From the NCBI GenBank assembly GCA_965202585.1, contig OZ241827.1, forward strand, positions 36,084,001-36,148,000: a DNA stretch of 64,000 nucleotides, in the 5' to 3' direction. Of this stretch, positions 5,270-44,000 are shown piece after piece (position 1 is the stretch's first letter; each line of letters opens with the position of its first letter). Source of the DNA: Thalia democratica. Lineage: Eukaryota. Position numbers and translations under genes: made by a program. The notes beneath the pieces are model-generated. The model had not been told where the DNA came from. It searched no databases and worked only from the letters and a program-made list of their open reading frames with translations.

Positions 5270-6300
5270 ATACAGTACACTACGATGCACTCGGTATCGG
5301 TAGTATAAAATGAAAGTTTTATAGAAAAGTTTACAACGTGGAGAAATAAACAATAAGGTAGATAAAAGTTAACTTCTTAAAAGTTATTTAACTTAAATTT
5401 ATTAAATTCGAAAATTTAGTTATATTTTAAAGGTTAATGGATAGAGTCAAATGTTTGCGCTTACAATAACATTTAGAATTTAATCGCTTTTTAGAAACAA
5501 TTTTAACAATTACAAAAACAGTTTTGTCTCTTTTGAATAAAATATTAGTTAAAAGTATTTTTATGAGCTGATATTTTTACTTAAAACAAAGGTAAAACAA
5601 AATAATTAAATTGTTTTTATACTAATTTGGATCTTGAATTCTGCTTTACTCTGAGGAATGGCTCTTCTTTCATATCCTCTTTGATAACTTGTAGATTTTT
5701 CTTGAAAGATGTTTAAATTTCTCGAAGAAGTTAAAAAATTGCTGCACAGATTAACAACTCGTTCATTATCAGCTGAGGTATCATCATCAAACAAACCAAG
5801 AGGAACTAGTTCTTCAACAGGATACAAGATATGACGATTCATTGCATTTAATGCAGAGGTTGCAAAAAAAATCAGTAGTTTTGTAATTTTAAAGTGTGTT
5901 TATTAAACCCAAGTCTTTGTCACGAACTGCTGAAGCCACAGTAAAATTGATCCAATGGGTAAAGTAGCTTCTCTGTCAGTTATCATGCTTTTAAGATACT
6001 GCAACTCAGTTTGCTTAATGTTTTTCTTCTTGAAATAGAAAAGGGTCTTCAAACTTTTTCATATCTTAATTTCAATATTTCTAAAAAGGCATGGTTTTTT
6101 AAAAGTCTATTATTTCGCTTTTATGCCTTTTGCTATAGACTGTCAATTTTCTTGTACTTTCTGAAACTCATTTTATAACCAATAATAATTTTCAAGACCA
6201 ATACCAGACTTTTCACAATAAACTGTGACTGTTTTATAAACAATTTTGACAGCTCTTAATTTCTCAGTATATTTGTACTTTAACCTTTTTTTTAGATATT
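5270..6300 (-). pseudogene. Highly degraded transposase-like relic, family not assigned
   Basis: ORF 5606-5842 contains EELVPLGLFDDDTS, which resembles a WYLSEELVxLxxFDD-type motif I recall from invertebrate transposase-like proteins. Surrounding frames are broken by stops. An HMM search is needed. Confidence 0.35.
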
Positions 6301-10614: not shown

Positions 10615-11146
10615 GTTTATAAAAGTTTAGTAATAACATCTAGTTTGTACTTTCGATCTAAAATAGTACATTAAAATAAGCTAATATTAATTGTCTAAAC
10701 TCTTAATATACTAATTAAAAATCATTAGAGTTTGACTGTATAGGTTATCCATAATTTACAATAAATATTTTACTGTATAGCAAGAAAGTTAAAATTATTA
10801 CGTTAAAATTATTAAATTATAAAAAAAACTTGATAGTTTTTATGCTCTAGTTTTTAAACCTAGACTCTTATGATCGTTTTGATATTAAAAGGCTAAAACT
10901 TTTAAAAAACTAACTGATATAAACATAAAAGCTATATACAAACTACATTTACATGTCGTTCGTTGCCAAAATAGTTAATATCTATTAACACAAACTATTA
11001 AAGTTTTACTTTACGTTTGTAGTAATATTTCTAAACATATTTACATATTTATACTTGTAAAAATATAGTTTTGTAGTTAAATCTGAAATTTATTATTATT
11101 CAATTTTTAAACTGAAATTGTTTAAACTATAGATAAAAATACTTAC

Positions 11147-12373
11147 TTCGTTTTCGTTTTTGAATGGAGTAACGCAAACAACTGGACCAAAAATTTCTTC
11201 TTTCATGCATGGATGGTTATCATCTAACCCAGATATTATAGTTGGTTGTATAAAATATCCCATGCTTATATCATTTGCTAAAACTAATTCATCAACACCA
11301 TCTCCGCACCATAGTTTTGCTCCTGAGTCACGAGCCATTGATATATACTTCTTTACTTTATCATAATGCTGTTTGCTTACTAGCGCACCACAGTTCGTAG
11401 AACAATCGTCTACTGCCCCAACTTTCAACTCACGAACTTTTTTAGTATATTGAGAGATAAAACTGTCAAATATATTTTCATGCACGAAAATTCTACTAGT
11501 ACACAAGCAAACTTCACCTTGGTTTGTAAAAGCTGACTTAACGAGTATTGGTAAACTTTTTTCTAAGTTAACATCTTCAAATAAAATCGCAGAATTTTTA
11601 CCACCTAATTCTAATGATAACTTTTTACAATATTCAGAAGATGATGCTATTATGTGTTTTCCGACAGTTGTACTACCAGTGAACGAAACTAGTGGAACGT
11701 TTTTGTGCTTGACTAAAGCATCCCCTGCTTTTTTTCCTGATCCAAAAACAATATTGACAACTCCTGCTGGTAATGATGATGCTTTTAGGACTTTGCATAA
11801 TAACCAGGCTGTCGCACTTGTAACTTCCGAAGGTTTTGCAACGCATGTATTTCCAAATGCAATTGCCGGCGCGATTTTCCATGTCAATAGATATAATGGT
11901 AAATTCCACGGACTTATAAGACCAGCAACTCCAACAGGCATTCGATCAACATAGTTAAGAGCGACTCCACTAGCAAATGGAATATCGTTCAGCTTTGTAC
12001 AAGTACTTGTGCTGTGTAAAATTGCACTTGCAAAAAATCTAAAGTTGTACACTGCTCTTGGTATATCAACATTCTTTGCTAGTAACACTGGTTTTCCTTG
12101 GTCTTGTGCTTCTACACCAGCGAACTCGTCTAGTCTTTCTTCAATCAAGTCTGCAATGTTGTTTAAAATACTTGCACGATATTTAGGACTAGATGTAGAC
12201 CATTTTTGAAATGCAGATTTTGCTGAGACAACAGCCTTGTTTACATCGGCTGCTTCACTGTCAGGAACTTTAGCATTTAGCTTAGTAGTTGAAGGATTGA
12301 AGCTATCAATAAAATCTTTATTGATTGGGTCTGTGAATTCATTGTTTATGAAGTTTTTAATATTAAAAACCAT
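11147..12373 (-). CDS. ALDH8A1: ALDH8A1-type 2-aminomuconic semialdehyde dehydrogenase, exon 1 (409 codons; 489 aa with exon 2)
   Basis: ALDH motifs ISPWNLP, FTGS, LSLELGGKN (catalytic Glu), GEVCLCTSRIFV (catalytic Cys) and EEIFGPV. DQGK...DIPRAVYNFRFFAS is typical of ALDH8A1. Donor GAA|gtaagt at 11147/11146. Confidence 0.93.
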
Positions 12374-12849
12374 TTTAGTTTATAAAATAATCTGTTTACA
12401 ATAACAATTTTTAATGCTCACTTTTGAGTTTTAATCTTTATTTAAAAATCATATACTTCACTTGCTATTTTTTCGATTTTTATAAAAACATAACAATATG
12501 TGAAATTAATTTATCGTGAAATACGTACTAATCTTTTAAAAATCAATTATGCTAGATATGTGAATAAATTAAGGTGGTAGATACTTAAAATAGAATAGAG
12601 GACACAAACATTTTTATATATATTTTATTAGTTATTCAACATGAGTTTTCACCTGCCAACTTATTTTCACTGTATAAGCAAAACATTTACAGGAAAACGG
12701 TAAAAAAAAATTCACAAGTCTGAAGTGTATATAACAAAGTATGAAATGAAATTAATCGCTAAACAGCCTACAACAATTGATCCATCTAAAAATTCAGCTA
12801 ATTATTTTGATATATAATTTTGCTTATTGAGCGAAAAAAAAAGCGCTAA

Positions 12850-13705
12850 GAAAAATTGTTATAAGGACCTGATGTACAAAAAAACTTAGTTATCATACAG
12901 ATACAGTTCAATGTCTTGTCCAGGACTTATATAAAGCAAAACTCAAAGATATTTTTAGCTGGTTTGTATGAAAATATGGATGAGATTTTAAAGTATGTTT
13001 GTGACCTAAAGTGAAGGAACATTGATTTTAGAATAAATTGGGAGGTGAAAGAAAGAGCACATCCTATAGCAGGTGGTAATAATAACCGGGTATGGAGGAT
13101 ATACTTAAAAGAGGTAACTGCCGTTGTGTATGCGTTTAAAAAAAGGGTTGCTTAAAGAAAAGAAGCAAATTTATATCTTCTTGCCGACATATAAAAAACT
13201 TTCTCTTAAAGTTTAATAAACTTTAAAAGTTTTAATTTCGAAGTTACTTAGTTGTGGTTTTCTAATTTTAGTTGTTTGTTTCGAACAAAGTTAGATTTTT
13301 GCACTGAAATGCGTCTTGTGTAAAATTTCATAATTATTTCTTTTTTTTTGTCTTTTTGTTTAATTTGTTTACTAATGTTTAATTCGAAATTAAACAGGTA
13401 AAGCTTATATGCAAAGTATATATGAAACAATTAAACTCTTTCTTTTTTTTTGAATACACATTTTGTAATAAATTGTTTAAAAGCTATTTAAGAAGGCTCA
13501 AGTGAAGTTGATATAGTTAACTTAATTTGAAATAATTTTAATATTTATGCAAACTTAGCGTGTCTTATTTTTAAAATGATTTATTTAGTGGCGTAACAAT
13601 CCTTATAGTTTTTTTGATTAATTTCATGTGCATATCATATTATCAAAAAAAAAAAACTGAGGATCTGTTCTGTCTAGCAAAACAGAGAAACAATTGCACC
13701 AGTAA
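12850..13705 (+). mobile_element. PLE fragment 1: degraded GIY-YIG 3' end plus pseudo-LTR
   Basis: Broken translation LKYVCDLK*RNIDFRINWEVKERAHPIAGG...KEVTAVVYAF...KRSKFISSCRHIK is homologous to ORF 20453-20857. Ends in a degenerate HHR at 13657. Confidence 0.8.
13657..13703 (+). ncRNA. Degenerate type I hammerhead ribozyme
   Basis: CTGAGGA-t-CTGTT..AACAG-a-GAAA-CAATTGC-A-CCAGT. Stem III palindrome is ACAATTG with U16.1 changed to C. The 5' arm of stem I is replaced by an A-run. Confidence 0.55.
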
Positions 13706-13769
13706 AATACTTGATGTTTTATTAAAACATTACCTATATATTTATTCTTTCAGGACTTTTTTATGAAAA

Positions 13770-13803
13770 CTAGGTTTCGGTCAAAGACCTCGTCAGTGCT
13801 TAA
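13770..13803 (-). ncRNA. Partial hammerhead ribozyme core
   Basis: Minus strand reads TTAAGCA-CTGACGA-GGTC-TTT-GACC-GAAA-CCTAGT. Core and helix II are intact; the 3' arm of stem I was not found. Confidence 0.5.
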
Positions 13804-14842
13804 ATAAAAATCTAAAAAGATATGTAACAGTCATTGAAAATAGTATTTAAACAACTAAATAAAAACAATTTTTACTAAAAAACAAAACAAATTGAATTTT
13901 AATCTTAAGGTTGAATTTATGGTAAAGTTTAAATTTTAGTTAAGTTTTGAAACCATTATAATGATAGAAAAAATGATAAAAACGTATATGAAGGCTTCTT
14001 TTTTCTTCTAGTGAGTTTTCAAAATAAACATAGCTTAAATAAAAATGTAGTTAATAGTAGTAAATGAGCTTTAAGTTGAGATACATTTTAATGAAGCTCA
14101 TTTTAATCGTGATGTAACTATCGAAAATTTAAAGAACTTTATGCTTGTAAAAACTACGAAAATTTGAAATTTTTCTTGAATGCATTTTATAAAAGTTTTT
14201 AGTTTTAAGAAAATAGTAAAAAAAACTTTTTAAGAGTATGCGTAAAACCTATATCACAAACAACTTAAGACTTAAGTTTTGAAGTTGAGTTTTTTGAAGT
14301 GCGGGCAGGAATAAAATGGTTCGTACCGTTTATTTAAGTTATCCCTTCTGTCGGCTTTGGCAATCGCGACTTTTTCTAGTATGCAAATACTGCAAATAAC
14401 TGTGGGTTTTTGGCTTTGCCAATATGGTGGATTATTTCCCAGTCTATTTTATAATCAATGTTGTTATTTTTAACTTTCAAGATATATTTCGATATTTCTG
14501 TGCCGTTTTCTTCGTAGTTTTCAAAATCACTAATATGGTTATACTATCTTTTTTTTGAAAGTACCACGCGTTGAGCCCAAATAGTTTTTTGATTCTTTTT
14601 CTGATCTGACTGTTGCTTTATATATGAAATTTTCAACTAAGCATTTGTTATTGAGAAGACATTTATTTTTTGTTCGAAAGTTGCAAAGTGTTTTGTTTTC
14701 TTCGTCGTTTTTGGTTTTTAAGTATTTTCGATTATGTTTTTGGATTGATTTCTTAATTTTGCTTATGCAGCTATATGAAGTTTTACAACTATTTCTATTT
14801 ATTATTTTGTTTAACTTGTGATCTTCTTTAAAATTTTTATCT

Positions 14843-15037
14843 GGTATACCATTAAAATCCACCCGCGTTCAAAATCCGACCGATTTTTTTTCTTTATTTA
14901 TTAATTTACTTTATATATTTTTTGCATATTTTTTATTTATTTTTTATTTATTTTTCACAATCACTGTTACCCCTAACCCTTACCCTCGATCAGTAAGCGG
15001 TTCTCGAATTTGACTGGGTGGATTTTGAACGTGTCCC
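14843..15037. mobile_element. Mutator-like MITE inserted in PLE fragment 2
   Basis: Same family as 30669-30803 and 34120-34254 (AAAATCCACCC / GGGTGGATTTTGAACGTGTC ends, internal TAACCCTTACCCTCGATC). Imperfect 9-bp TSD sharing TTTATCT. Confidence 0.75.
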
Positions 15038-15399
15038 GTTTATCTATTAGTTGCAGAAACGCTTTATCTATGTTGGTTCTTACTGACCGGCAGTAAGGTG
15101 GGTTGAAATAGATTGTTTTTCTTGTTCGTGTTGTTTTCTTTTTGTTTTATTGATTTGAGTATTTAAGTTTTTGTTTGAAATTTAAGTAAGTTGAAGCATT
15201 CTGCTATCTTGTTATTGATTCTTTGAAAGTTTCCTAGGTTTTTGATAGTCTGTTGAGTCTTTTTTCAATCATTTTGGGAGGTTCGTTTTGATAATGGACG
15301 GATGGTTCGAATAATTGTTAATATAGTTGGTACTTAAGTTTTTTTTTTGATATGGTTTGAATGTGTTATTAGCAGTATCTAGGGATATATCTCGGAATT

Positions 15400-15945
15400 T
15401 AAAAACAAAATAATAAATAGAAATAATTGTAAAATTTTATATAGCTGCATGAGCAATATTAAGAAATTAATCCAAAAGCATAATCGAAAACACTTAAAAA
15501 CAAAAAACGATGAAGAAAATGAAATACTTTTCAACTGTCGAACAAAAAATGAATTTTATCTCAATAAAATATGCTTAATCGAAATTTCATATATAAAGCA
15601 AGAAAAAGATCAGAAAACGAAACAAAAAAACTATTTGGGCTAAAGGGTTGGGACTTTCAAAAAAGATGGTACAACCATATCAGTGATTTTAAAAACTACA
15701 AAGAAGAAAGCCCACAATTGGGATATTATTATTATTTTTATTATTATGTTATTTTCGAAACATAACTAAAATTTAAACTTTACCATAAATTCAATCTTAA
15801 GATAAAAATTTAATGCGTTTTGTTTTTAAGTATAAATTTGTTTTTAATTAATTATTTAAATACTATTTTCCATGACTGTTACATATCTTTATAGATTTTT
15901 CATTTAAGCATTGACGAGGTCTTTGACCGAAACTTAGTGTTAACG
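15400..15945 (+). mobile_element. Inverted partial duplicate of PLE fragment 2
   Basis: ORF 15449-15643 (IQKHNRKHLKTKNDEEN) is homologous to minus-strand ORF 14539-14862. Ends in TTGACGA-GGTC-TTT-GACC-GAAA at 15911-15932, an HHR core with C3 changed to U. Confidence 0.85.
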
Positions 15946-16039: not shown

Positions 16040-16430
16040 ACAGATGTTTTTGTGTCAAAACTTTATTCCGGCTAACGGCGTGTCACTAAAATTTAGCAAA
16101 AGTAGATTATGACGTAGTTTTGAAACTATCAAAAATCATGCAAAACGGCTTGTGCATGATTTTTAATAGTTTCAAAATTACGTCATAATCTACTTATGCT
16201 AAATTTTTAACTTTCAATTGTGTGTTTTGTTTTGTGCTTTATTTTGAACTTGTTTTGAAGCTGATGAATGCATAAGCACGAAACTCGAGTCCTTTAAGTT
16301 TTACATCTTGAAATAAACCTTTTTATTAATAAAGCCCTTAAGGTGGGCTCAGTGTGAAAGATTTTATCTATCAAGCTAAATAACTTAATTCTATATACAT
16401 ACAAAATAAGGTGTTATTCAAACTTGAACA
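16040..16430 (+). mobile_element. Family-A PLE pseudo-LTR with fold-back 5' end
   Basis: Roughly 54-bp inverted arms at about 16090-16206 around AAACGGCTTG. Homologous to 24300-24560. Preceded by (TA)n at 16012-16037. Confidence 0.8.
16255..16297 (+). ncRNA. Minimal type I hammerhead ribozyme, family A
   Basis: TTGAAG-CTGATGA-ATGC ATAA GCAC-GAAA-CTCGAGTC^CTTTAA, GUC cleavage site. One mismatch in helix II. Confidence 0.8.
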
Positions 16431-16520
16431 CCTTCTACTGAACCCACTTTAAGAGCTTTTAAATAATTTATTGAAAAAGTATGATTTAAAAAATACTGGT
16501 ACTTTACGATTTTAAATTAA

Positions 16521-16568
16521 GCTTGCTGATGATTAAGGCGTCTAGTCTTATGAAACATATGTACCAGT
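16521..16568 (+). ncRNA. Hammerhead ribozyme, family B, partly degenerate
   Basis: CTTG-CTGATGA-TTAAG..CTTAT-GAAA-CATATGTA^CCAG. Palindromic stem III ACATATGT, GUA site, one mismatch in stem I. Confidence 0.7.
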
Positions 16569-16619
16569 ATCTTTTAAATTGTAATTTTTCAATAAATTGT
16601 ATATATACATTTATATTAT

Positions 16620-17845
16620 AATAAAACAACTATTTTTCGAATCGTTTACTTAGTTTCAATGCTTAGCGCATGTCTTCAGAATGAAATAAAGAACAAAGCA
16701 AAATTTAAAAAAAATCACACAAAAAAACACATTGTGATGTTTCAAATAAAATTGAATAATTTTAGTTAGCCTATTTTAAAAACAACTTATGTACAAGTCA
16801 ACATATTTTTGCTTTGTTTGTTCTTGTTTTTGGATTTATTTTATTGTTATTTTTTGTTATTAATTAGTGGTTTTTGTTCTTTTAAAATACATGTTTTTTG
16901 CCAATTTTTTGCCTATTTTAGTTGCTACAGTTAGGGAAAAAGGTGGGTTAAAATAAATAATTTTTCTTTTTCTTTGCTTTTTTGTTGTTTTTTCATTTGC
17001 CTTTTGGTATGTTAAGTTGACTTTGTTATTGGTGAATTCTAGTGCTGATTGATAACTATGTTTTATACGGTTAAATGATTCTTCGTTACTTGATAAATTG
17101 TTTAGTCTTTCGTTAATAGTTATAGGTAATTGTTTTAATATTTTATTAGGGTGGTTTGATTTGTTGCTAACATAAAGGATATCCGAATTTGGTTTTCTGA
17201 ATGGGATGTATGTTTTGTTGGGTAAGTTTAGTTCGATATCTAAAAAGTCTGTTTTGATTAGGCCTGAATCCACTGTTATTTTAAAACCCCATTTGTTAAA
17301 AATTTTGTGTAATTCTTTTGTTGTGTTTTCTATGATTCTCGGCGATTTAGATTGGATGACCGCAAGGCCATCGTCTCTATATATACCGAATTCTTCTTCA
17401 TTGAATATATTATTATTTTTTTATTTCGCTTAGCATGAAAAGTCCTACCATGTCGCACACTTCGGCTCCATTGTAGGATCCTATGCTAACATTAAAAAGG
17501 TCAGAGGTGTTTATTTTTTCCCATGTTTTGTTTTCGTGAAAGATTGTAGACTTGCAGGAATGTAGTATTAACTTTTGATCGTAGTCTGTGATTGGTGTGA
17601 ATTTTTCAGCAAATTTTAACGAGTTAATTAAAGTTGTTTTTGTTATGGATGGGTAAAATATATTGATATCGAATTTTATGAATCGGGTTTTAGGGGTTAT
17701 TTCTAGTTTATTGAACCAGTTTATAGCGATGTCAGTGTTTTTCCATTGATTTAGTTTTGAGCCTATTATTGTTCTTTTATTTATTGTGTCTAGTTTAGCT
17801 TTCGTGGAATTTATTGAAAGGGGATTTGAAGGGATACAAAACTCT

Positions 17846-17848
<3 letters not shown>
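16620..17848 (-). mobile_element. PLE fragment 3: RT core with the endonuclease deleted, plus pseudo-LTR
   Basis: LNQWKNT, IKFDINIFYPSIT (RT motif A), GSYNGAEVCDMVGL, GIYRDDGL (motif C), TDFLDI and IIYFNPPFS. After KIGKK it jumps to the 3' UTR. Bounded by (TA)n at 17850-17880. Confidence 0.9.
16640..16686 (-). ncRNA. Hammerhead ribozyme, family C
   Basis: Minus strand reads TTTCATT-CTGAAGA-c-ATGC GCTAA GCAT-t-GAAA-CTAAGTA^AACGAT. Homologous to 24868-24914. Confidence 0.7.
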
Positions 17849-17883
<35 letters not shown>

Positions 17884-17904
17884 GTTTATTTAAAGATGCA
17901 AAAC

Positions 17905-17947
17905 TCAAAGGACTCGAGTTTCGTGACTATTCACTCATCAGCTTCAA
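17905..17947 (-). ncRNA. Minimal type I hammerhead ribozyme, family A
   Basis: Reverse complement reads TTGAAG-CTGATGA-GTGA ATAG TCAC-GAAA-CTCGAGTC^CTTTGA. Confidence 0.9.
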
Positions 17948-18482
17948 AACAAGTTTAAAATAAAGCACAAAACAAAATCACCAATGAAAGTTAAAAAATT
18001 TTTGCATAAATAGATTATGACGTAATTTTGAAACTATCAAAAATCATGCAAAACGGCTTGTGCAAAAACTAATTCACCAATCGACAATAAACTAGCAAAA
18101 ATTCATATAACTTCAGTGAGTAACTATATATTAGGACAGATAATTGAAAGAGATACAAAAGAAGCGAGTTTGTATCGTCTTGTAGACATATAAAAAAGTC
18201 GCTTTTAAAGTTTAACAAGTTTTAATTTAATCTTAAAATAACCTAAATTTCAAATTGCAACTTAATTTTACCTTTATCTCTTTCAATTATCTGTCCTAAT
18301 ATATAGTTACTCACTGAAGTTATATGAATTTTTGCTAGTTTATTGTCGATTGGTGAATTAGTTTTTGCACAAGCCGTTTTGCTTGATTTTTGATAGTTTC
18401 AAAATTACGTCATAATCTATTGATGCAAAAAATTTTAAACTTTCATTAGTGATTTTGTTTTGTGCTTTATTTTAAACTTGTT

Positions 18483-18525
18483 TTGAAGCTGATGAGTGAA
18501 TAGTCACGAAACTCGAGTCCTTTGA
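18483..18525 (+). ncRNA. Minimal type I hammerhead ribozyme, family A
   Basis: TTGAAG-CTGATGA-GTGA ATAG TCAC-GAAA-CTCGAGTC^CTTTGA; cleavage predicted after 18519. Confidence 0.9.
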
Positions 18526-18912
18526 GTTTTGCATCTTTAGATAAACCTTTTTAATAATAAAGCCCTCAAGGTGGGCTCAGTGTGAAAAGTTTAATTTGTT
18601 AAGTTAAATAACTTAATTCTCTATATATATATTATAGAATTAAGTTATTTAACTTAATAAATTAAATTTTTCACACTCGAAACTCGAGTCCTTTGAGTTT
18701 TGCATCTTTAAATAAACCTTTTTAATAATAAAGCCCTCAAGGTGGGCTCAGTGTGAAAAATTTAATTTATTAAGCTAAATAACTTAATTCTATATATATA
18801 TATTTATATTTATATATAGAATTAAGTTATTTAACTTAATAAATAAAATTTTTCACACTGAGCCCACCTTGAGGGCTTTATTATTAAAAAGGTTTATTTA
18901 AAGATGCAAAAC

Positions 18913-18955
18913 TCAAAGGACTCGAGTTTCGTGACTATTCACTCATCAGCTTCAA
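18913..18955 (-). ncRNA. Minimal type I hammerhead ribozyme, family A
   Basis: Identical to the 17905-17947 motif. Confidence 0.9.
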
Positions 18956-19163
18956 AACAAGTTTAAAATAAAGCACAAAACAAAATCACCAATGAAAGTT
19001 AAAAAATTTTTGCATAAAAAGATTATGACATTTATTTTGCATAAATAGATTATATATATATATATATAGAATTAAGTTATTTAACTGAATAAATTAAATT
19101 TTTTCACACTGAGCCCACCTTGAGGGCTTTATTAATAAAAAGGTTTATTTAAAGATGTAAAAC

Positions 19164-19206
19164 TCAAAGGACTCGAGTTTCGTGCCTATGCACTCATCAG
19201 CTTCAA
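19164..19206 (-). ncRNA. Minimal type I hammerhead ribozyme, family A (helix II variant)
   Basis: Helix II is GTGC ATAG GCAC, a compensatory change relative to GTGA/TCAC. Confidence 0.9.
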
Positions 19207-19279
19207 AACAAGTTTAAAATAAAGCACAATGTAAAACTTTCATTCGTGATTTTGTTTTGTGCTTTATTTTAAACTTGTT

Positions 19280-19322
19280 TTGAAGCTGATGAGTGCATAG
19301 GCCCGAAACTCGAGTCCTTTGA
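19280..19322 (+). ncRNA. Minimal type I hammerhead ribozyme, family A
   Basis: TTGAAG-CTGATGA-GTGC ATAG GCCC-GAAA-CTCGAGTC^CTTTGA. One mismatch in helix II. Confidence 0.82.
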
Positions 19323-19385
19323 GTTTTACATCTTTAAATAAACCTTTTTATTATATATATATATATAAATATATATATCATATAT

Positions 19386-20365
19386 ACACCGGTCGCAGTG
19401 AACAACCGCCTCCAGAAGATTTCTAGCAGTCAAAGCATTTTTAAGGAAACAACCCAGCAATACCAGGAAGCTATAAGAGAAAGTGGATACGATCACGAGT
19501 TAGCCTATAGCCACAAAAACGAGAAGGGTAACAACAAGAAAAGAAGGAGAAGAAATATTTTATATTTCAACGCACCATTCTGCAAAAGTGTGGCAACACG
19601 GGTTGGGAAGCGCTTCCTAGAGATTGTGGACAATAACTTTACTGAAAACCATCCATATTGTAAAGTTTTTAACAGGAAAACACTAAAAGTGTCCTACTCC
19701 TGCATGCCAAACATGAAACAACTTATAATGGCACACAATCGAAAGATGTTAGACACGCAGTACAAAGAGAGGCGAATGTGTGACTGCAAAAAACAAGAAT
19801 GCCCGGTAAATGGAAGTTGCCTAATGGAAAATATTATATTTAAAGCGACAGTCATAACTGATAACCAGACCAAGTTTTATGTAGGATCGACTGGACTATC
19901 GTTCAAGAATCGCTACACAAAGCACAAGTACAGCTTCAAACACTAAAAAACATAAAAATACGACAACTTTATCGCAGTACATTTGGAAACTAAAAAATAA
20001 CGGAGTTAATTTTAAAATTCAGTGGGAAATATTAACAAAAACAAAAAATAAATACAGTTTAAAAAACGGATGTAAATTGTGCAATGCGGAAAAAATCGAA
20101 ATTTTAAAAGTTAAAAAATCTCAATCTCTAAACAAAAGAAACGAATTACAAACTGGCTGCATACATTATCGAAAGCAATTTATCTAAAAACTCTGTTAAT
20201 AATTTTGTCTAAAATCAACTATCTATTATTACGTATTACCTAATTTTGTATAATTTTATTGCTGTACTTACAAGTTTGCTTTTCATTGAATAAAACTTGG
20301 CTGAGGACGCGTATTAAACGCAGAAACAGCTGTACCAAGCAAAAGTTTATTTTGTGTATGTTATT
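19386..20365 (+). mobile_element. PLE fragment 4 (5'-truncated: RT thumb, CxC linker, GIY-YIG, pseudo-LTR)
   Basis: ORF 19398-19946 has ILYFNAPF, VSYSCMPN, CDCKKQECPVNGSCL, IIFKAT and FYVGST. One frameshift, then KNGCKLCNAEK...LNKRNELQTGCIHYRKQFI* at about 20187. (TA)n on both sides. Confidence 0.92.
20296..20339 (+). ncRNA. Minimal type I hammerhead ribozyme, family D
   Basis: CTTGG-CTGAGGA-c-GCGT ATTAA ACGC-a-GAAA-CAGCTGTA^CCAAG. Perfect 5-bp stem I, palindromic stem III ACAGCTGT, GUA site. Confidence 0.9.
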
Positions 20366-20429
20366 TCTATATATATATATATATATATAAAATAAGGTTA
20401 ATGTTTTATATACATTAACCATTATTATA

Positions 20430-21110
20430 TATACGGTGGCTGTAAATACAATTTGAAGGGGGGCAATTGCCGGTCAGAGAACATTATTTACAAGGCAACA
20501 GTTAACTCTGACCTTGAAAAGAAGTTCTACATCGGCCTATGCTCCACTCAATTCAGATTTCGGTATGCCAACCATAAAAAATCCTTTAAAGGTGGTGTAT
20601 ACGAAAATGAAACTGAGCTTTCGAAGTATGTTTGCGGCCTTAAGCACAAAAACATTGATTTTAAATTAACTCGGGAGGTGATAAAAAGAGCACAGCCAAT
20701 AGCAGATGGTAACAACCCTGTTTGTAGGCTGTGCTTAAAAGAATCAACAGCCGTTATGTATGCGTTAAAAAAGGAAGGTTGTTTAAATAAGAGAAGCGAA
20801 TTTATATCGTCTTGTCGACATATAAAAAAGCTTCTTTTAAAACACAACAAATTTTGAAGCATTTTATAGTCAATTAACTGTTGTTTTCGTTAATTTTAGT
20901 TGTTTAATTAGTTAGAAGGTAGATCGATTTTTGTACTGAATATTTGTAATGTACAATATTACGTCATACTGTTTTTTGTTTTTTTGCATAACTTTTGTAT
21001 CTTTGTTTAGTACAGTGCTTTGTATTTTGAATTTAACTGGCTGATGATCAAAGCTTTATGAAAAATTAAAGCTTTGTGAAACATATGTTCCAGAATTTTT
21101 AAAATCGCCA
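20430..21110 (+). mobile_element. PLE fragment 5 (GIY-YIG endonuclease plus pseudo-LTR)
   Basis: ORF 20453-20857: NIIYKATV...FYIG...RYANH...CRLCLKE...LNKRSEFISSCRH (GIY-YIG with CCHH residues). Confidence 0.92.
21037..21093 (+). ncRNA. Type I hammerhead ribozyme, family B
   Basis: CTGG-CTGATGA-t-CAAAGCTTTA/TAAAGCTTTG (perfect 10-bp helix II)-t-GAAA-CATATGTT^CCAG. Palindrome ACATATGT, GUU site. Confidence 0.85.
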
Positions 21111-21114
21111 TTTG

Positions 21115-21146
<32 letters not shown>

Positions 21147-22900
21147 TTATTTATTTAATTATATAAAAACTTATGAAAAATATTACCCAATAACAGATAA
21201 AGAAATGAATTTAATTATACACTCTTGTAAAGCAATTTTAACTCATAAAAGCCAAACCTGGGAAAAAACAAATTCAGACCAACTATTTAATGTAAGTATG
21301 GGATCATTTAACGGGGCAGAAATCTGCGATTTAATAGGGTTATTTTTACTAAATGAAATCAAAAAAAGTAAGATTTTTATAGATAATGAATTCGGATTAT
21401 ATAGAGATGACGGGCTAGGGATAATAAGAAGCAAATCACCGAGATCAGCCGAAAACACCGCTAAATATTTATTTAAATTATTCAAACAAAACGGCTTTAA
21501 AATAACAATAGAATCCGGATTATTCCAAACAGACTTCTTAGATGTATCCTTCAACATATCAAACTCAAGTTACCAACCATACAACAAACCAAACTCACCA
21601 ATTTTATACGTAAACTACAACTCCAACCACCCCCGACAAATACTAAAACAACTACCCGAAACAATAAACAGAAGACTAATAAAACTATCTAATAACGAAG
21701 AATCCTTCAACAATGTAAAAAATGAATACCAAAAAGCATTAAATTCGGCCAATTATAAAAACACCTTAAAATACGATAAGACCACTTTACCAGAAAGAAA
21801 TAAAAAACAAAGAAAAAGAGACATAATATATTTCAACCCACCATTCAGTCTAAATATAAGTTCAAAAATAGGCAAACAATTCTTAAACCTGATTACTACA
21901 TCATTTGACGAAAACCACCCATTCCATAAAATATTCAACCGAAACACAATCAAAATATCTTACAGTTGCACAAATAATTTCAGAAGTAAAATAATAGCTC
22001 ACAACAACAAAATATTAAACAAAAGCAATATAGACGATAAAAGCACCATAAAAGATAAACTTTGTAATTGCCGTAAAGAACCTTGCCCTTTAAATAACGA
22101 ATGCCTAGTGTTAAATATAATTTATAAAGCAACAGTAACATCAAATAAAACAACAAAGCAATATATAGGGTCGACAGGAAATACCTTTAAACAAAGATAC
22201 AGAAACCACAAATCATCATTCAACAATATTAACAAAAGACACACAACAGAACTAGCGAATTACATATGGAACTTAAAAGATAACAATACAGACTACAAAA
22301 TTAAATGGGAAATATTAAACAGGACAAAATTAAAATTCAATACTAAATTCGGCTGCAAACTTTGTAACTTAGAAAAAATAGAAATCGAAAAATCAGATAA
22401 GAACGTAACACTAAACAAGAAAAGCGAAAGACAAAACAAATGCATCCATTATCAAAAATACTTTTTTAACAAAATTAAAACCAACTAAATATTAAAACAA
22501 AATAAAATCGCAGCGGCAAACACGAGTATTTTATAGCATTTTATAACATTTTTCCCAACAGCCTAAAAGATTTTTCTAATAGCTTAAAACATTTTTCCAA
22601 AATAACCTTTTTAAACTTTCCTAAAAAGCATAGAATAACATTTACAGCGTATTTCAAATTCAACTAATCGTACAATAAACTGTACCATTACTACGTCATA
22701 ATTACTATAAAAAATTCTAAAATCGAAATTTCTGTTCACTATTATAATAAACTACAACTCACTGAAGATCACATGAAATTTTACATTTCAATGTGTGAAA
22801 CAGCTGTTTGAATTATAGTTTTTATATAATTAAATAAATAAATATTAAGCTCCAATTTGATTTGTCGAGCACTATCGATCAGAACTTTGTATAAAACCTT
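21147..22900 (+). mobile_element. PLE fragment 6, Neptune-like, 5'-truncated, with an uninterrupted RT-to-endonuclease reading frame
   Basis: ORF 21112-22488 (the start is an artifact of the TA tract) has MGSFNGAEICDLIG, GLYRDDG, TDFLDV, YFNPPFS, CNCRKEPCPLNNECL, IIYKAT..YIGST, RYRNH, CKLC and KCIH. It is followed by a pseudo-LTR with an HHR. Confidence 0.95.
22756..22814 (+). ncRNA. Type I hammerhead ribozyme, family E
   Basis: AACTCA-CTGAAGA-t-CACAT..ATGTG-t-GAAA-CAGCTGTT^TGAATT. Palindrome ACAGCTGT, one mismatch in stem I. Confidence 0.8.
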
Positions 22901-22937
22901 TAATATATATATATATATATATGTTTAATATATGTTA

Positions 22938-22980
22938 TCAAAGGACTCGAGTTTCGTTACTATTCACTCATCAGCTTCAA
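22938..22980 (-). ncRNA. Minimal type I hammerhead ribozyme, family A
   Basis: As 17905-17947, but helix II is GTGA/TAAC (one mismatch). Confidence 0.8.
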
Positions 22981-23518
22981 AACAAGTTTAAAATAAAACA
23001 CATAACAAAATCACTAATGAAAGTAAAAAATTTTTTGCATAAATAGATTATGACGTAATTTTGAAACTATCAAAACTCATGCAAAACGGCTTGTGCAAAA
23101 ATTAATATACCAACAGACAATAAACTAGCAAAAATTCATATAACTTCAGTAAATAACTATATATTAGGACAGATAATTGAAAGAGATAAAGATAAAATTA
23201 AGATGCAAATTGAAATTTAGGTTATTTTAAGATGAAATTAAAACTTGTTAAACTTTAAAAGCGACTTTTTTATATGTCTACAAGACGATACAAACTCGCT
23301 TCTTTTGTTTAAACAACCTAAATTATCTGTCCTAATATATAGTTATTCACTGAAGTTATATGAATTTTTGCTAGTTTATTGTCTGTTGGTATATTAATTT
23401 TTGCACAAGCCGTTTTGCATGATTTTTGATAGTTTCAAAATTACGTCATAATCTATTTATGCAAAAAAATTTTTACTTTCATTAGTGATTTTGTTTTGTG
23501 CTTTATTTTAAACTTGTT

Positions 23519-23561
23519 TTGAAGCTGATGAGTGAATAGTCACGAAACTCGAGTCCTTTGA
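23519..23561 (+). ncRNA. Minimal type I hammerhead ribozyme, family A
   Basis: Consensus family-A motif; cleavage predicted after 23555. Confidence 0.9.
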
Positions 23562-24490
23562 GTTTTGCATCTTTAAATAAACCTTTTTATCAATAAAGCC
23601 CTCAAGGTAGGCTCAGTGTGAAAAATTTAATTTATTAAGTTAAATAACTTAATTCTATATATTTATATAGAATTTTATATATAAAATTTTCAACAAACAT
23701 AATATGGGAATAAGTTATTCGTGTACGGCAAATTTAGAGAATATCATTAAGGCACACAACCAAAAAATTTTAAATCAAAACTCAGGAATTCAAAGTCAAT
23801 GCGGCTGCGCTGGTAGCTGTAAATATAATTTGAAAGGGGGTAATTGCCGTTCAGAGAACATCGTCTACAAGGCCACAGTTAACTCTGGCGTTGAGACGAG
23901 ATTCTATGTCGGCTTCTGCTCGACTCAGTTTAGATTCAGGTATGCCAATCATAAAAAATCTTTTAAAGGTGGCATATATGAAAATGACACTGAACTTTCG
24001 AAGTATGTTTGTGGCTTAAAGCGCAGCGGCATTGACTACGAAATATCCTGGGAACTTATAAAAAGAGCACAGCCATAGCCGACGGCAATAGCCCAATATG
24101 TAGGCTGTGTCTCAAAGAAGCATCAGCCGTTGTATATGCACTGAAAGACAAGAGATGTTTAAACAAAAGAAGCGAGTTTGTATCGTCTTGTAGACATATA
24201 AAAAAGTCGCTTTTAAAGTTTAACAAGTTTTAATTTAATCTTAAAATAACCTAAATTTCAAATTGCAACTTAATTTTACCTTTATCTCTTTCAATTATCT
24301 GTCCTAATATATAGTTACTCACTGAAGTTATATGAATTTTTGCTAGTTTATTGTCGATTGGTGAATTAGTTTTTGCACAAGCCGTTTTGCATGATTTTTG
24401 ATAGTTTCAAAATTACGTCATAATCTATTTATGCAAAAATTTTTAAACTTTCATTAGTGATTTTGTTTTGTGCTTTATTTTAAACTTGTT

Positions 24491-24533
24491 TTGAAGCTGA
24501 TGAGTGAATAGTCACGAAACTCGAGTCCTTTGA
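24491..24533 (+). ncRNA. Minimal type I hammerhead ribozyme, family A
   Basis: Consensus family-A motif; cleavage predicted after 24527. Confidence 0.9.
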
Positions 24534-24557
24534 GTTTTGCATCTTTAAATAAACCTT

Positions 24558-24588
<31 letters not shown>

Positions 24589-24699
24589 GTATTATATATT
24601 TTTAAGAGAATAGTGAAATAATTGTATTTGATAACTTAGTGTTTTAATAATATATATACAAAAAAAAATTACTTAATCTTTTTTTATTAAGTCCGCTTG

Positions 24700-24960
24700 A
24701 AAAGGCTTTAAAATGACTTATTTAAAAGTTAATAAAAAACAAAGCAAAAAATAAGTTAACTTGTACATAAGTTATTTTTAAGATAAGCTAACGAAAATTA
24801 TTCAATTTCATATGAAACGTCATAATGTGTTTTTTGTGATTATTTAAAAATTTTGCTATGTGCTTTATATCGTTCTGATGAGACGTGTTAAACGTTGAAA
24901 CTTAGTAAACGATACGAAAATTAGTTGTTTTTTTGTATTATAAATCATTTCAAAGTTATA
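24700..24960 (+). mobile_element. Solo pseudo-LTR of the PLE fragment 3 family
   Basis: Aligns by eye with the reverse complement of 16620-16810. Confidence 0.8.
24868..24914 (+). ncRNA. Minimal type I hammerhead ribozyme, family C
   Basis: TATCGTT-CTGATGA-GACGT GTTAA ACGTT-GAAA-CTTAGTA^AACGATA. Perfect 7-bp stem I, near-palindromic stem III ACTTAGT, GUA site. Confidence 0.9.
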
Positions 24961-26396
24961 TATTTATTTTAATATGCGTCTTGAACAAAATCTAAAAACT
25001 ACGTCATAATTTTTTTTGTACAATTTTTAACTGCAGCAATGTACATTTGAGTCTTTATTTCTATTTTAAATATCTGAGTATTGTAGCAATAAGCTAATTG
25101 AAACCATTGTACTATTTTTAAAATTACTAAACTTTAATATAAATAATTTATAAATATACATAAAAATATAAAAACTCTAAAAAACACTCAAAGTTGTGGT
25201 CTAAGAACCTAGTGTACGAAATTTTTTTTCGTTTATCCTACTATAACAATAATAGTTCTGCTACCTCATTTAAAAAATCCTAGACACGCTTCTACTGTAG
25301 ATTCTTAAGTATGAAGTGAAACAAAAATACGCTTATTTATAACAGACTAATTGCAGTTTCATATTTTATTTTTGCTTGAAAAGGTCGCAATCTCTTGCCA
25401 CCGAAACCGGTCGCGAATAAAATATAAAATTTGCATAAATCTATTTAACAGACTAATTACTAAACAAAATATATTTTAATTAAAAAATAAAAAGTATAGT
25501 TATAATTAAAAAGTATTTGTTTCCCTATCTAAAAGTAATTTTTATGATGTATTGTTTAGAAGGTAATTTTCTATTGATTGTTTGCATTAGACATGTAACT
25601 TTAAAGTTTATTTAAGATACTCTTGAAATTTTATAGATTTTGTTTGCTTTGCTACGTACGAACTAAGTTAAATCACACTAGTTTAACTTTTTATTAGCTT
25701 TTATTTCAGTATTTTAACAAAACAAAAAATAACTTATTGTTGCTCAAAGAACATAAGACATTGCTTATTTTAACTTATAAATCAGATTGATGAATAAAGT
25801 TCGGAAGGAGAAACTAGAAAAATATTAAATTGTTTTTTTGAAACTAAAAAATATTGTAAATATATTTGTGCGTATAATTTGTCTTGTAGAATTTAGTAAA
25901 AATTATAATACTAGTTAGTACTTTTATTCTAATCATGCAATTGCAGTAAACAAACTAGAAATTAAAAACTATAAATTGTTTTTTATTACTTAGTATGAAA
26001 AGTATTAACTTTTATTTGACTTAGTTGATTAGTAATTAGGAATTAAAAAAAGTGTTATCATTTTAAAAAAGAACCAAATAACTAAATTAATTAGCTTAGA
26101 AAAACCTAGGTTTGAAACACAGGTGCTTGTTACTTTTTAAACAATAAACGTACTAGCACTGTTGACTAAAGCAGTGTTCTTCACGTTGTGCACCCGTGCA
26201 CACTACTTTGACGAAAGTTATACACAAAATTTCAGGGTCGGACTAGACTTATTTAAGGGTAAAAAAAATATTTTAGGATGCACAGAAAAGAAGAAAATAA
26301 TTTTATATGTATATTTTATTAAACAATCTCTGTACATATATGTACATTACTTTTTGGATCCTGATAACTCCATTAAAACGTGTTAACTCGTTTAAT

Positions 26397-29149: not shown

Positions 29150-30055
29150 TCTGAATAGTTTGGTTTTGGTACTGTTTTTAACAAAAAAATTACCTTCGCT
29201 TTCCTTATATGGGTGAAAACTCAATAAGACTGGCTAAGCAAGCTTCATTAGCTATAAAATCCACCTTTAACAGCGTTTCGCTACGTGTTGTGTACAACAC
29301 CATACGCCCGCTTAACGGAATTGTAAAAGATGCCACACCTACCCATGATTTGAGTAATGTAGTATACATATTTAAATGTCATTGCGGAAATGACTACGTA
29401 GGTCGAACATCTCAACGTTTCCACGTCAGGCGAGAGCAGCATGTCACGAAAAAGCTAAAAAGGTTTATTTTTATTGACGACGTGAAGCCTAAAGGTGAAC
29501 AGTCATCTATTCATCAGCACCTCCTCAACAACCCTGTTTAAGCCGAGAACTACCTGGATAATAGGTTCGAAATTCTATCCCGAGCTAGAAACACCTACTA
29601 TCTTTCAGTTCTAGAATATTTGTTTATTATTTTAACTATATTTTAATTAATTATATTAACTATTTATATTTATGTTTATTAGAACTCGCGAGCCAAAAAT
29701 TTGCAAACCAAGATATTTTTACAATTTAAAACTTTATAAATAGCGTGCTTAGTAGTATTATTGTTGTCGTTTTTGTAATGTGCTTTTTATTTAACTTAGT
29801 TTCAGGTAAAAATTTTTACTATTTTAAATGTTTTTGTTTTAGCAATTTTGTCTTATAAATTACTTCAAATTAGCTTAGTACAACTCAATTCTATTTTTAA
29901 AACTAATTCTAAACAGACTTTTAAACTTTATGACGTAACTATTTTTAGCTAGACTTTTCAAATTTATTGTATATAACTAAAATTACACTATGATATTAAT
30001 AGTTTTAGCAATATTATTCTGAGGATGCGCTAAACGAAATTAATTAATAAACTTT
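29150..30055 (+). mobile_element. Penelope/Poseidon-type GIY-YIG fragment plus pseudo-LTR
   Basis: ORF 29209-29541 contains SNVVYIFKCHCGNDYVGRTSQRFHVRREQH...SSIHQHL, continuing FEILSRARN. Degenerate HHR at 30019. Confidence 0.88.
30012..30050 (+). ncRNA. Degenerate hammerhead ribozyme
   Basis: TTATT-CTGAGGA-tgcgctaaac-GAAA-TTAATT^AATAA. Stem I pairs and stem III is the palindrome ATTAAT, but helix II is disrupted. Confidence 0.5.
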
Positions 30056-41000: not shown

Positions 41001-44000
41001 TGTGAATAAATGCAACCATCCTGAGACCAACCCCCAATCGAATTTAGTGAAGTTCTAATTTTAAAAGTATTTACAAAAGTCATTCTCAATAAATAGTAAG
41101 CAACATACTAAAACAAAAATATCATCAATCAAAGTGTAAATTTAGTTATACGTTCATGCAGAAATAACTAATAAAATTTATCAACAAATCTAAATTGTTA
41201 AAGTTTATGAAAAACCTTAACTTTGTGTAAGGTAAAAACCAGTTTCATAAGTATATGTATAAAATAAAATTTTAATTTATTTTTACTTCTACATAAAAAC
41301 ATACTAAATAACTAATAAAACAATGATTACCTAACATTATCTGAAAAATTCCACATAACACACAACGGATCAACTATATTTTCAGGTTTTATCAATTTTA
41401 AACTTATTTGTATTGGATCATCATTACGAGGTATTTCACGCATAAATCCCTTTTCGTCATACACTTTACTAACAAATGTACGATCTTCTTCGCTCATATA
41501 CTTAAATGATTTTCCTCGATATTTCACTACAAAGCTTATCAATTCGCTGTTGACGGTTGGCCTAAATGTTCAAAAACTATATTAAAGTTAAAATATATTT
41601 TACGTAGTTCCATTTTACGAACATACTATTTTAGCAATTAATTCTTAAACTCTAGAAAAAAATCATCTAAAAAACGATCTGAAGTAAATCTAAAAAAACT
41701 TTTTTTTTAACCTTTTTGGTATTCTTACTGATTGACTCACTTCAAATGATAATGGAAAAATGTCTTTTAATGTTTTAAACGACATTATTCCAACTACGAT
41801 TGAATTTGCTGTAACACAAAAAAAAATTTAAAAAGATGTAAGTATTTTATATATAAGTTTATTAGTTTAATGAGTATACTTACTCATTTAGTTAGAATAT
41901 GAACAATTATTGACACAGTGTTTTAAGGAGTTCATGTTTCTAAATTTAAATAGTTGATTAATATAAAGATCTTACAAAAAAGTTCACCAGAACGCAGACT
42001 TCTTTTTTTAGTCTTTTTCGTTTTATTTTTAATAAATAAAGTGTTTGGTAGCTTCATATAAACTCCACCAAGCAACATATCGTTTGGAACTGAAAACATT
42101 TTTTCTGGAAATATGAATATTGAACTTAAGTTTTACAATTTAAATTTGTGTAACCACGTAGATTACAATAAAAAAAAAACTGTATCGAGAAAATTTCGCT
42201 GCTACTTAGCTTCATGTTTATTTTTATGAATTTTTAACTATTAAAATTTACGATTAGTAAACACGTGTTAATCAAATAAATTAAAGCATTAAGCTTTTAA
42301 TTTGTGTACGTAGCAGCTAATATTTACGTGAGTTTTAAGCTTCGTAAACTTTAAAATATTTTTCAAAGGAAATAATAAAGTGCATTAAATGTGTTATCAT
42401 TATAGTAATATTCAAAAATTTTTTATCAAAATACAAAATCTATACAAAGATACTTTATTATTGGCAAAAAAGCATTAAAAATAGCAAATACTAAAATTAA
42501 TTATAGGTAAAATCAATTACTTGGTTTTTACAAACGGACAATACTTTATAGTTAATTCTAAACAAAGTTTTGTTTTTGTTAAAATAAAATCTTAAACTCT
42601 AAATGCTATAAAAAAAGTAAACAAATAAACAAAAACAAAATTTTGAGTTGTAGGTAAAAAATATAGTTATTGCTACTTGCTAAAATGGTTAAAACAAAAA
42701 CTAACCGTCGTTCTTGCCTAATGTGTCTAATGAAAACAAAATGTTTTCAGACGAAATATATTTAGCCCTGTCTAAATGTACTTTTTCAGCGTTTTCAACG
42801 AGTGTACTAATATAGTTTTGCCAATTCTTAATTAGGTACGGGGCTGACAAACCCGTGCTCGGATTTTCCATTTTCCAGAAGCGTTGTGTTTTGTTTGAAA
42901 TGATAGCAGATGTTGCTCGAACTAAATCACCTTTGGTAATGTATAAAAAATTAACTTCCGTTGTTTTATTGTCGGAAAGGATTTTGTTGTATTCAAAAAC
43001 TGTTTGCAGCTTAAAAACACTACACTTGTCATTTGAGAAATGTTATTAGTACCTAAAGCTTTTTGAATTGATATTCAACTCCTTATCAAAACTAAAATAA
43101 AAAGTAAAACTGTTTAAAACTTACTTATACAAGGTTATAAAAAGCAAGCTGTACAAACCAAAGTTAAAAAGCAAAGTTAAAAAGTCAAACTAAAGTTATC
43201 TAATTGATTTTCAAAAAAGTTTTTTTTTTTTTGCTGCTACTAGTGTGTTTAACTTTTATACTTCTTGTTTTATTAGCATCAATTCTAGACTATAAACCTT
43301 ACCTCAGGCACACCTTTTAAGAACCTTGAAATTATTCTCAATTTTTGATATCTGATACGGTAAACATTTATGCAAATGATAAAAAATATCACTACGCTTG
43401 TCTTGTCCTTTACAATCAGCAAAACATTTGATGCCATGTCTATTTCTATTCTATGTGATACATGCGCTGGTCTACAGAGCAGGTATACTTGTATATGACA
43501 TTTTCGTCAAATATTTCTGAACATTTCTGAACACTTGCTTTTAGTTTAACCTGAATGCTAATGCAATACACAAGTATGGGAGTTATGTATGAGCTTTGTC
43601 GATTTCAAAAAGAACTTTTCAAAATTACAAAAGTATTGTTTAAAAATTAATATGCAGAGCAAATAATATGAACTTAAATAAATAACTTTCTCGAAAGCCA
43701 TAAAATCAAAATTTTAACTTTTAAACAAGAACAAAAAACGAATACTGGCAACAACTCTGAAATTGATTAACTTTATGATATTATTCGTTAAAATTACAAA
43801 AACCAATTAGTAGTGTTTTTTTTTAATAATACCAGCATACATCACCAAAAAAGTGTCTGAATATTAAGTGTCTGAATAAAAGTGTTCAGAAATGTTTGAC
43901 GAAATGTCATATACAAAAATATCTGCTCTTAAAATCAAAGCATTTCCTACAAAACATAGACATCACTTCAAATGTTTGGAAGAGTTGCTAACTGTGAAGG

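Follow-up and report, generated by a model that had tools for sequence, protein, structure and literature searches.

A 64,000-nucleotide (nt) stretch of the Thalia democratica genome (hereafter the window: assembly GCA_965202585.1, contig OZ241827.1, positions 36,084,001 to 36,148,000) includes an interval that, from its sequence, is a nest of 5'-truncated Penelope-like element (PLE) fragments of the Hydra clade, joined at (TA)n runs. The fragments end in hammerhead ribozymes whose helix III is 7-8 nt long and self-complementary. An earlier reading of the same DNA (the original prediction) proposed that these palindromes are family-specific addresses, letting each family dimerize only with itself and process its RNA independently of the families nested beside it. 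Comparative sequence data and modelling indicate that helix III self-complementarity is probably selected for pairing between two ribozymes. We are fairly confident that it is kept for identical twins on a tandem precursor, and that the differences between families reflect compensatory drift and not a selected address. Palindromic helix III and dimer cleavage have already been published. What is new is the comparative support: complementarity of the innermost pair, an asymmetry of G·U variants between strands, and a change from ATAT to ACGT.

Pairing of helix III between two ribozymes

Helix III words were obtained by a relaxed hammerhead scan of the window, which confirmed the self-complementary words that had been listed for the families named in the original prediction. 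The motifs are type I hammerheads with CUGANGA and GAAA boxes, an NUH cleavage site, and stems I and II all present. Family A carries ACTCGAGT in nine motifs (word starts 16283, 18511, 19308, 23547, and 24519 on the + strand, and 17912, 18920, 19171, and 22945 on the - strand). ACAGCTGT forms helix III of families D (20326) and E (22800), and ACATATGT that of families B (21081) and B3 (16555). Odd-length words are ACTTAGT in family C (24900) and ACTAAGT in family C4 (16648-16654, - strand).

Across the 802-Mb genome we identified about 15,000 hammerhead motifs by exact-pattern search, with the reversed pattern as control and with words drawn from the first 100 matches listed per search. Matches with an 8-nt helix III number 5,782 (170 in the control), those with 7 nt 5,523 (176), and those with 6 nt 3,777 (226); odd-length motifs make up about half of the 7-8 nt set. 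The catalytic core sets the A/U at either end of helix III, which leaves only the inner 2-3 pairs informative. By hand count, 76 of the 100 8-nt matches listed first are perfect palindromes, with about 6-9 expected and copies that are not independent. A perfect palindrome is impossible at 7 nt; in the words listed, the third position nearly always pairs and there is one central mismatch. ACAGCTGT occurs in 1,518 copies (control 0) and sits with at least four different stem II families among the matches listed.

When helix III is 8 nt long, its innermost pair is out of reach for a monomer hairpin. Among 22 recurring inner tetramers, which were hand-picked by recurrence and are phylogenetically not independent, this innermost position pairs in 17 and the next position in 21 (chance 6/16). 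Variants are also unevenly distributed between strands. At the inner pair, G/T-G/T combinations number 773 versus 277 for the reverse complement, A/C-A/C, and at the outer pair there are 279 G·U-compatible forms versus 162 for the reverse complement; control counts for these four classes are 43, 58, 38, and 64, and a few subfamilies dominate. The asymmetry points to pairing in RNA and is unexpected for a DNA site or for neutral decay. Modelling agrees: in rule-based structures with nearest-neighbor energies, built from one real copy per family and omitting the core and tertiary contacts, all 24 families modelled are predicted to favor the active homodimer over two active monomers, by 6-20 kcal/mol. 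The suggestion that these are PLE hammerheads with a palindromic helix III suited to dimers thus fits the sequences and the models, as it does published PLEs.

Compensatory change from palindrome to palindrome, which the original prediction anticipated, is seen in family B3, by an ordinary wobble route in which each step is compatible with the parent. There are 152 exact B3 matches in the genome. Among the 100 listed, one core variant has ACGT in 41 of 47 copies, and the other (53 copies, hand count) has ATAT in 26, ACGT in 9, ATGT in 9, ACAT in 3, and others in 6; the ATAT and ACGT forms have the same stem II. The base five positions before the core served as a flank marker and was read in 57 collapsed copies, some of the ACGT copies being segmental duplicates. 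It is G in 23 of 23 ACGT copies and A in 12 of 14 ATAT copies. ATGT copies have A in 10 cases, one of them truncated and uninformative, i.e., in 9 of 9 informative copies, from 7 insertion loci. Derivation of ATGT from ACGT by CpG decay was ruled out, as the ACGT flank marker never occurs on ATGT copies. We interpret ATGT, which has the ATAT-type marker and is found at 7 loci, as a replicated U·G intermediate on the ATAT background. The order ATAT to ATGT to ACGT is likely, because B and B2 carry ATAT with the A marker. ATGT is predicted to pair at all 8 positions with both ATAT (-7.0 kcal/mol) and ACGT (-8.5 kcal/mol), compared with -3.0 kcal/mol for ATAT with ACGT. Similar transition series occur in the E-like families (AGCT, GGCT, GGTT, GGTC), in the C group (TGCA, TGTA, TATA), and in A (TCGA, TTGA), suggesting that these three lineages also move by single transitions via G·U states. 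In young copies of family A' (L141, L156) the endonuclease is 99% identical to that of A and helix III contains tandem U·G; the modelled A/A' duplex (-8.6 kcal/mol) is stronger than the A' homoduplex (-5.8 kcal/mol).

Full-length copies have two hammerheads 2,522-2,787 nt apart, within near-identical pseudo-long terminal repeats (pLTRs). In the family B copy L044, the twin pLTRs have 0 mismatches over 265 nt upstream and a common private stem II variant; in L141 they have 1 mismatch over 420 nt. Elements thus insert at (TA)n, with two identical hammerheads 2.5-2.8 kb apart in full-length copies. In the mechanism that we propose, the active dimer would outcompete two active monomers, as modelled. 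Both helix III and stem I would form between copies, as the literature suggests, so a lone motif would cut poorly. A new helix III variant would meet itself in cis because it is copied into both pLTR ends, and, as the shared private variants indicate, a change in the palindrome would always encounter an identical partner. Helix III could then change one transition at a time, each G·U state still pairing with the form before it and the form after it, as in B3 and probably in the three other lineages. Loss of cross-cleavage would follow incidentally as the entire ribozyme diverges, chiefly in stem I. The partner is likely the identical twin in the tandem pLTR, and selection is unlikely to act on the truncated, nested fragments of the window. 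In genomic copies, 35-100 nt are retained past the cleavage site, which implies that the template was uncut or religated there. Tandem pairing has been proposed as a way to allow cleavage in multimers and avoid it in monomers (PMC4209133 and PMC6765202).

Choice of partner and alternative explanations

When two hammerheads pair, each receives its cleavage site and the 3' strand of stem I from the other, as type I topology implies and as published (PMC4209133 Fig. 1A), so the choice of partner would depend on stem I as well as on helix III. Among 276 modelled family pairs, stem I alone excludes a doubly active heterodimer in 253, where exclusion means that at least one core has <3 bp of stem I with one mismatch allowed; 18 of the 253 keep one possibly active core. 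Of the 23 stem I-compatible pairs, 9 have no helix III barrier (A/A' -0.4, C/C4 -4.0, and E2/E4 -1.4 kcal/mol, and six at 0). For the sister families A and A' (TCGA/TTGA) and C and C4 (TTA/TAA), the models predict cross-pairing at least as good as self-pairing. The proposal that palindrome swaps block cross-pairing holds for some modelled heterodimers, such as B versus the B3 subfamily B3c with a penalty of 5.7 kcal/mol, but not for A/A' or C/C4.

Reuse of words between distant families is also evident. The endonuclease tree (LG+G4; 40 hand-picked copies of the 113 with an endonuclease, several old ones on long branches) places G as sister to A and B (bootstrap 100), with D and E elsewhere. 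Two rows of the tree (W_16261 and L040) were ignored, as they represent a neighbor's endonuclease, and E4, which has no endonuclease, was placed by stem II likeness only. Families D, E, and G all use ACAGCTGT at 39-49% endonuclease identity, and words are likewise common to C and N and to H and I. The 196 family pairs with <60% endonuclease identity include 5 that share helix III, 3 that share four stem I bases (all in the C group), and 0 that share five stem II bases. For 14 deep lineages there are 5 helix III collisions versus 2.7 expected from random draws (zero would have P = 0.04). There is no avoidance of shared palindromes, and helix III is not the fastest-changing stem.

The original prediction, in which selection keeps the palindromes of co-active families distinct and thereby limits each family to dimers with itself, in the manner of the HIV-1 dimer initiation site (DIS), seems unlikely to us on this evidence. 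It draws support from families A and B, which have 77-78% identical endonucleases yet orthogonal words; the 78% identity first noted by hand between fragments 5 and 7 of the window was reproduced (69/88), with different palindromes. B-group and D ribozymes have different helix III words on a partly common stem I, the true double change from ATAT to ACGT in the B group costs heterodimers 5.7 kcal/mol with stem I nearly unchanged, and in HIV-1 differing DIS palindromes reduce co-packaging (PMC3187697). However, the words are not family-specific: D shares one with E and B shares another with B3 within the window, and words are reused genome-wide. Fragments 4 and 6 do share ACAGCTGT, but calling their endonucleases related was loose (81/189, or 43% identical). 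A DIS-like system would have one word per co-active family and a palindrome that decides the partner, whereas D/E/G, C/N, and H/I share words, stem I already separates nearly all families, and the palindrome does not discriminate in 9 of the 23 pairs that stem I would admit. Partners are available in cis, and a heterodimer would cut at the correct sites; the cost of cross-talk is thus likely small, leaving little to avoid. Distant reuse, the lack of avoidance, and separation by stem I all speak against the palindrome as an address for independent processing. No address-code or heterodimer claim was found in a literature search that left out Lünse et al. 2016 and the supplements of PMC4209133 and PMC7229834. 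A related idea, to which we give equally little credence, is that stem I and helix III form a two-part signature of self in trans, such that the two-step G·U walk isolates a subfamily and drives the splitting of PLE families; isolation may then act on cleavage, ribonucleoprotein assembly, or template switching.

Several observations weigh against selection for twin pairing followed by drift. In 14 of the 23 stem I-compatible pairs the palindrome does discriminate (4.5-8 kcal/mol; 8 of the 14 are B-group versus D), and B3c is predicted to be isolated from its parent after two steps. In an earlier model, whose stem constraints were partly faulty, the homodimer was often no better than misfolded monomers. 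The helix III center is mismatched in some families (CTCG, ATTT, and all 7-nt forms), and an ACAT-type pair has been copied at least once (L078). Frequent nonpalindromic helix III in young copies, named in the original prediction as counterevidence, is found in part, in the form of the 5,523 odd-length motifs and the tandem G·U of young A'. Dimer cleavage here is a prediction from models, and the RNA data consist of contigs, which do not show ends. In other systems, monomer cleavage is weak for an axolotl hammerhead with 2 bp and a tetraloop and efficient for a coral retrozyme (PMC7229834), and the hammerhead of an Anolis PLE requires the element's protein (PMC11167929). Because that PLE inserts in vitro without hammerhead cleavage, which is dispensable there, the role of cleavage itself is uncertain (PMC11167929).

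It is improbable, in our estimation, that cleavage occurs mainly in monomers, with 2 bp and a tri- or tetraloop and aided by tertiary contacts or the element's protein, and that the palindrome is secondary or vestigial. Such a view would accommodate invertebrate retrozymes that cleave as monomers and whose helix III is similar (PMC7229834), the protein-assisted cleavage of one PLE hammerhead (PMC11167929), and the odd-length motifs, for which a weak duplex is modelled (-1.6 to -2.3 kcal/mol in the A/U-rich forms). It does not account for the innermost pair, which is useless to a monomer and yet is kept and covaries, or for the modelled preference for dimers over two active monomers in every family. 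A role of the palindromes as sites in the DNA of the pLTR promoter is, in our view, very unlikely. CAGCTG, CATATG, CACGTG, and CAATTG all fit CANNTG, the E-box pattern, but it does not match family A, the C group, or any 7-nt form. A double-stranded site also predicts no preference for a word over its reverse complement, whereas G·U-type variants are in about three-fold excess.

The nested elements and their surroundings

PLE identity was based on motifs and BLAST, and the Hydra-clade assignment on motifs, the endonuclease tree comprising copies from this genome only. Pfam gave no family for 9 of the 11 window proteins tested, all interval PLE fragments among them. Fragment 5 (family B) is 98% identical to an intact 713-amino acid (aa) copy elsewhere in the genome, and for fragment 6 (family E) there is a young copy elsewhere with 99% identity. 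For the family E endonuclease, the best 150 of 9,395 candidate matches are 86-100% identical, some of them inside 718-aa frames. The intact family B copy, L044, has a single 713-aa open reading frame (ORF), with reverse transcriptase (RT) followed by a C-terminal GIY-YIG endonuclease, between hammerheads 2,525 nt apart. Its protein has RWK at 41, DKT at 120, YRDD, and a Cys linker; an E copy has DKS at the DKG/DKT motif, and its N-terminus lies outside the locus. The endonuclease spacer (IIYK...YIG) is without His, and thus there is no CCHH motif, and the terminal CxxC/CxH motif reads CRLC/CRH and CKLC/CIH. A length of <3 kb with a single ORF is also a Hydra-clade feature, and TA runs lie both where fragments of the window join and at the ends of copies.

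Published Hydra-clade PLEs with a C-terminal endonuclease (EN+) share RWK, DKT, the Cys linker, CxxC/CxH, the lack of CCHH, and a size of <3 kb (PMC8557442), and they too have canonical hammerheads and use (TA)n as insertion site (Craig et al. 2021, PMC8557442). We place the Thalia elements in this clade because the motif set of the intact B copy matches these features. The published linker is CxCx5C, in contrast to CxCx3-5C in Thalia, where the spacing is x5 in three families and x3 or x4 in A, B, and E. RNA contigs of families D, B, E, and A, which show neither ends nor strand, are present in RNA libraries of two studies.

Ten (TA)n runs between 16014 and 24583 mark the insertion junctions of the nest. 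In order of position, it includes a scan-identified family A hammerhead (16254-16298, +) that ends a short A-type 3' fragment, with ACTCGAGT at 16283-16290 and predicted cleavage after C16291. Next are a family B3 hammerhead (16519-16568, +; ACATATGT at 16555-16562) with an intact core and a damaged 5' strand of stem I, and a broken C4-type fragment (16609-17832, -) with RT pieces, a 3' untranslated region, and a terminal hammerhead at about 16641-16685 with ACTAAGT. A cluster of short family A 3' ends, inverted and in tandem (17876-19353, mixed strands), has hammerheads at 17904-17948 (-), 18482-18526 (+), 18912-18956 (-), 19163-19207 (-), and 19279-19323 (+). Fragment 4 (19389-20378, +) is the 3' part of a family D PLE, encoding thumb, linker, and GIY-YIG endonuclease with one frameshift, and ends in a hammerhead with ACAGCTGT (20296-20339). 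The endonuclease-encoding 3' part of a family B PLE forms fragment 5 (20434-21127, +; hammerhead 21037-21093, ACATATGT), and a 5'-truncated family E RT plus endonuclease forms fragment 6 (21174-22845, +; hammerhead 22759-22811, ACAGCTGT). An inverted pair of family A 3' ends (22938-23662, mixed strands; hammerheads 22938-22980 on - and 23518-23562 on +) precedes fragment 7 (23682-24562, +), the 3' part of a family A PLE with a frameshifted endonuclease and a hammerhead at 24490-24534 with ACTCGAGT. A family C 3' end (24731-24966, +) has a hammerhead at 24868-24914 with the odd-length ACTTAGT.

Outside the nest, the words previously listed at 13690 and 30039 are present, but both hammerheads are degenerate. 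In the first (13657-13703, +), C stands after the word where U16.1 is expected, and poly-A has replaced the 5' side of stem I; the second (30014-30050, +; ATTAAT) is only hammerhead-like, with a weak stem II. Old, inverted pieces of a family N PLE (13736-15938, mixed strands) carry degenerate hammerheads at 13796 (-) and 15911 (+). Rfam matched Hammerhead_1 to three A copies in the window, all below the gathering score; its other matches were chance microRNA hits.

In many families the basal position of stem II is a U·U or C·A mismatch (21048-21077, 22769-22796, and 16533-16551 in the window), resembling the axolotl HHR_Amex2 (PMC7229834). Families A, A', B, and B3 have in common a G/C hairpin (GCCC-7 nt-GGGC) about 40-60 nt past the cleavage site (window 16315-16350 and 18545-18590; L044:3590-3640), despite differences in every stem of their hammerheads. 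One end of an inverted pair often keeps this hairpin and the other stops at (TA)n, like the PLE tail signature.

The 6-nt class is mostly one abundant ACCGGT family in 327-bp units (e.g., G000:C1:4121084-4121441), and no endonuclease was found upstream at the loci examined. We classify this family by its sequence as retrozyme-like because of the tandem 327-bp units without an upstream endonuclease; a stem I variant makes a long array in L142. In family M (L191-L194), both strands of stem I are an identical self-complementary 4-mer and the helix III center is mismatched. False matches in the 6-nt class came from a 27-bp tandem repeat (L092-L106; G000:C1:1631774-1635566) that has the hammerhead pattern without stems. 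Pattern matches in a gag-like ORF (L050) and in coding tandem repeats were also counted as false.

Upstream of the 30039 motif, a GIY-YIG remnant with a CHC...H pattern (29182-29541, +) is likely, from this pattern, a PLE of another clade (CCHH-type). An RT remnant at 61810-62442 (+) corresponds to Pfam RVT_1 and was unmatched by Hydra-clade proteins. The nest is flanked by an aldehyde dehydrogenase exon (427 aa, Pfam Aldedh; 11096-12379, -). Exons at 42701-59444 (-) are rich in EGF-like cysteines and LamG-like stretches and appear to resemble a Flamingo/CELSR-type gene. Tandem repeats were also identified: a 44-bp unit in 9 copies (687-1084), and a 15-bp unit in 9 copies (53402-53540) and, in opposite orientation, in 17 copies (55448-55695).

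Comparison with known systems

The genomic fossil record is used here as evidence for selection on pairing between two ribozymes. The B/B3 series (ATAT, ATGT, and ACGT on the same stem II) and A/A' are natural pairs for comparison of homodimers with heterodimers. Small PLE hammerhead variants reportedly cleave as dimers, to judge by the title and citation of a 2016 study by Lünse, Weinberg, and Breaker. The Thalia data bear on whether PLE hammerheads act in vivo, one in vitro study having found cleavage dispensable (PMC11167929).

A short palindromic helix III in the pLTR hammerheads of metazoan PLEs was published by Cervera and De la Peña (2014, PMC4209133). Those hammerheads and the Thalia motifs are alike in being type I, in their pLTR site, and in the tandem dimer model, and in both cases there are many divergent families per genome, with most copies single and truncated. 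The parts of that paper covered give no tree of helix III states; the Thalia data show G·U intermediates that were replicated, together with an asymmetry between strands. A palindromic loop III is also found in repeat-type dimeric hammerheads (Perreault et al. 2011, PMC3088659). Two alternative palindromes are apparently listed within Schistosoma and within Aedes, in the scrambled figure text of Fig. S8, and the parts of that source covered do not link palindromes to element families or partner specificity.

The HIV-1 DIS palindromes GCGCGC and GTGCAC are likewise self-complementary, and different words lower hetero-pairing, but the DIS acts in trans, between two packaged genomes, via a loop on a stable hairpin (PMC3187697). 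In Thalia, by contrast, the word belongs to the catalytic fold, stem I is exchanged too, and an identical partner is available in cis. Set beside these systems, the Thalia motifs appear to add members to a known element type; what is useful in them, judged from sequences and models, is a good comparative case for selection at the level of the dimer.

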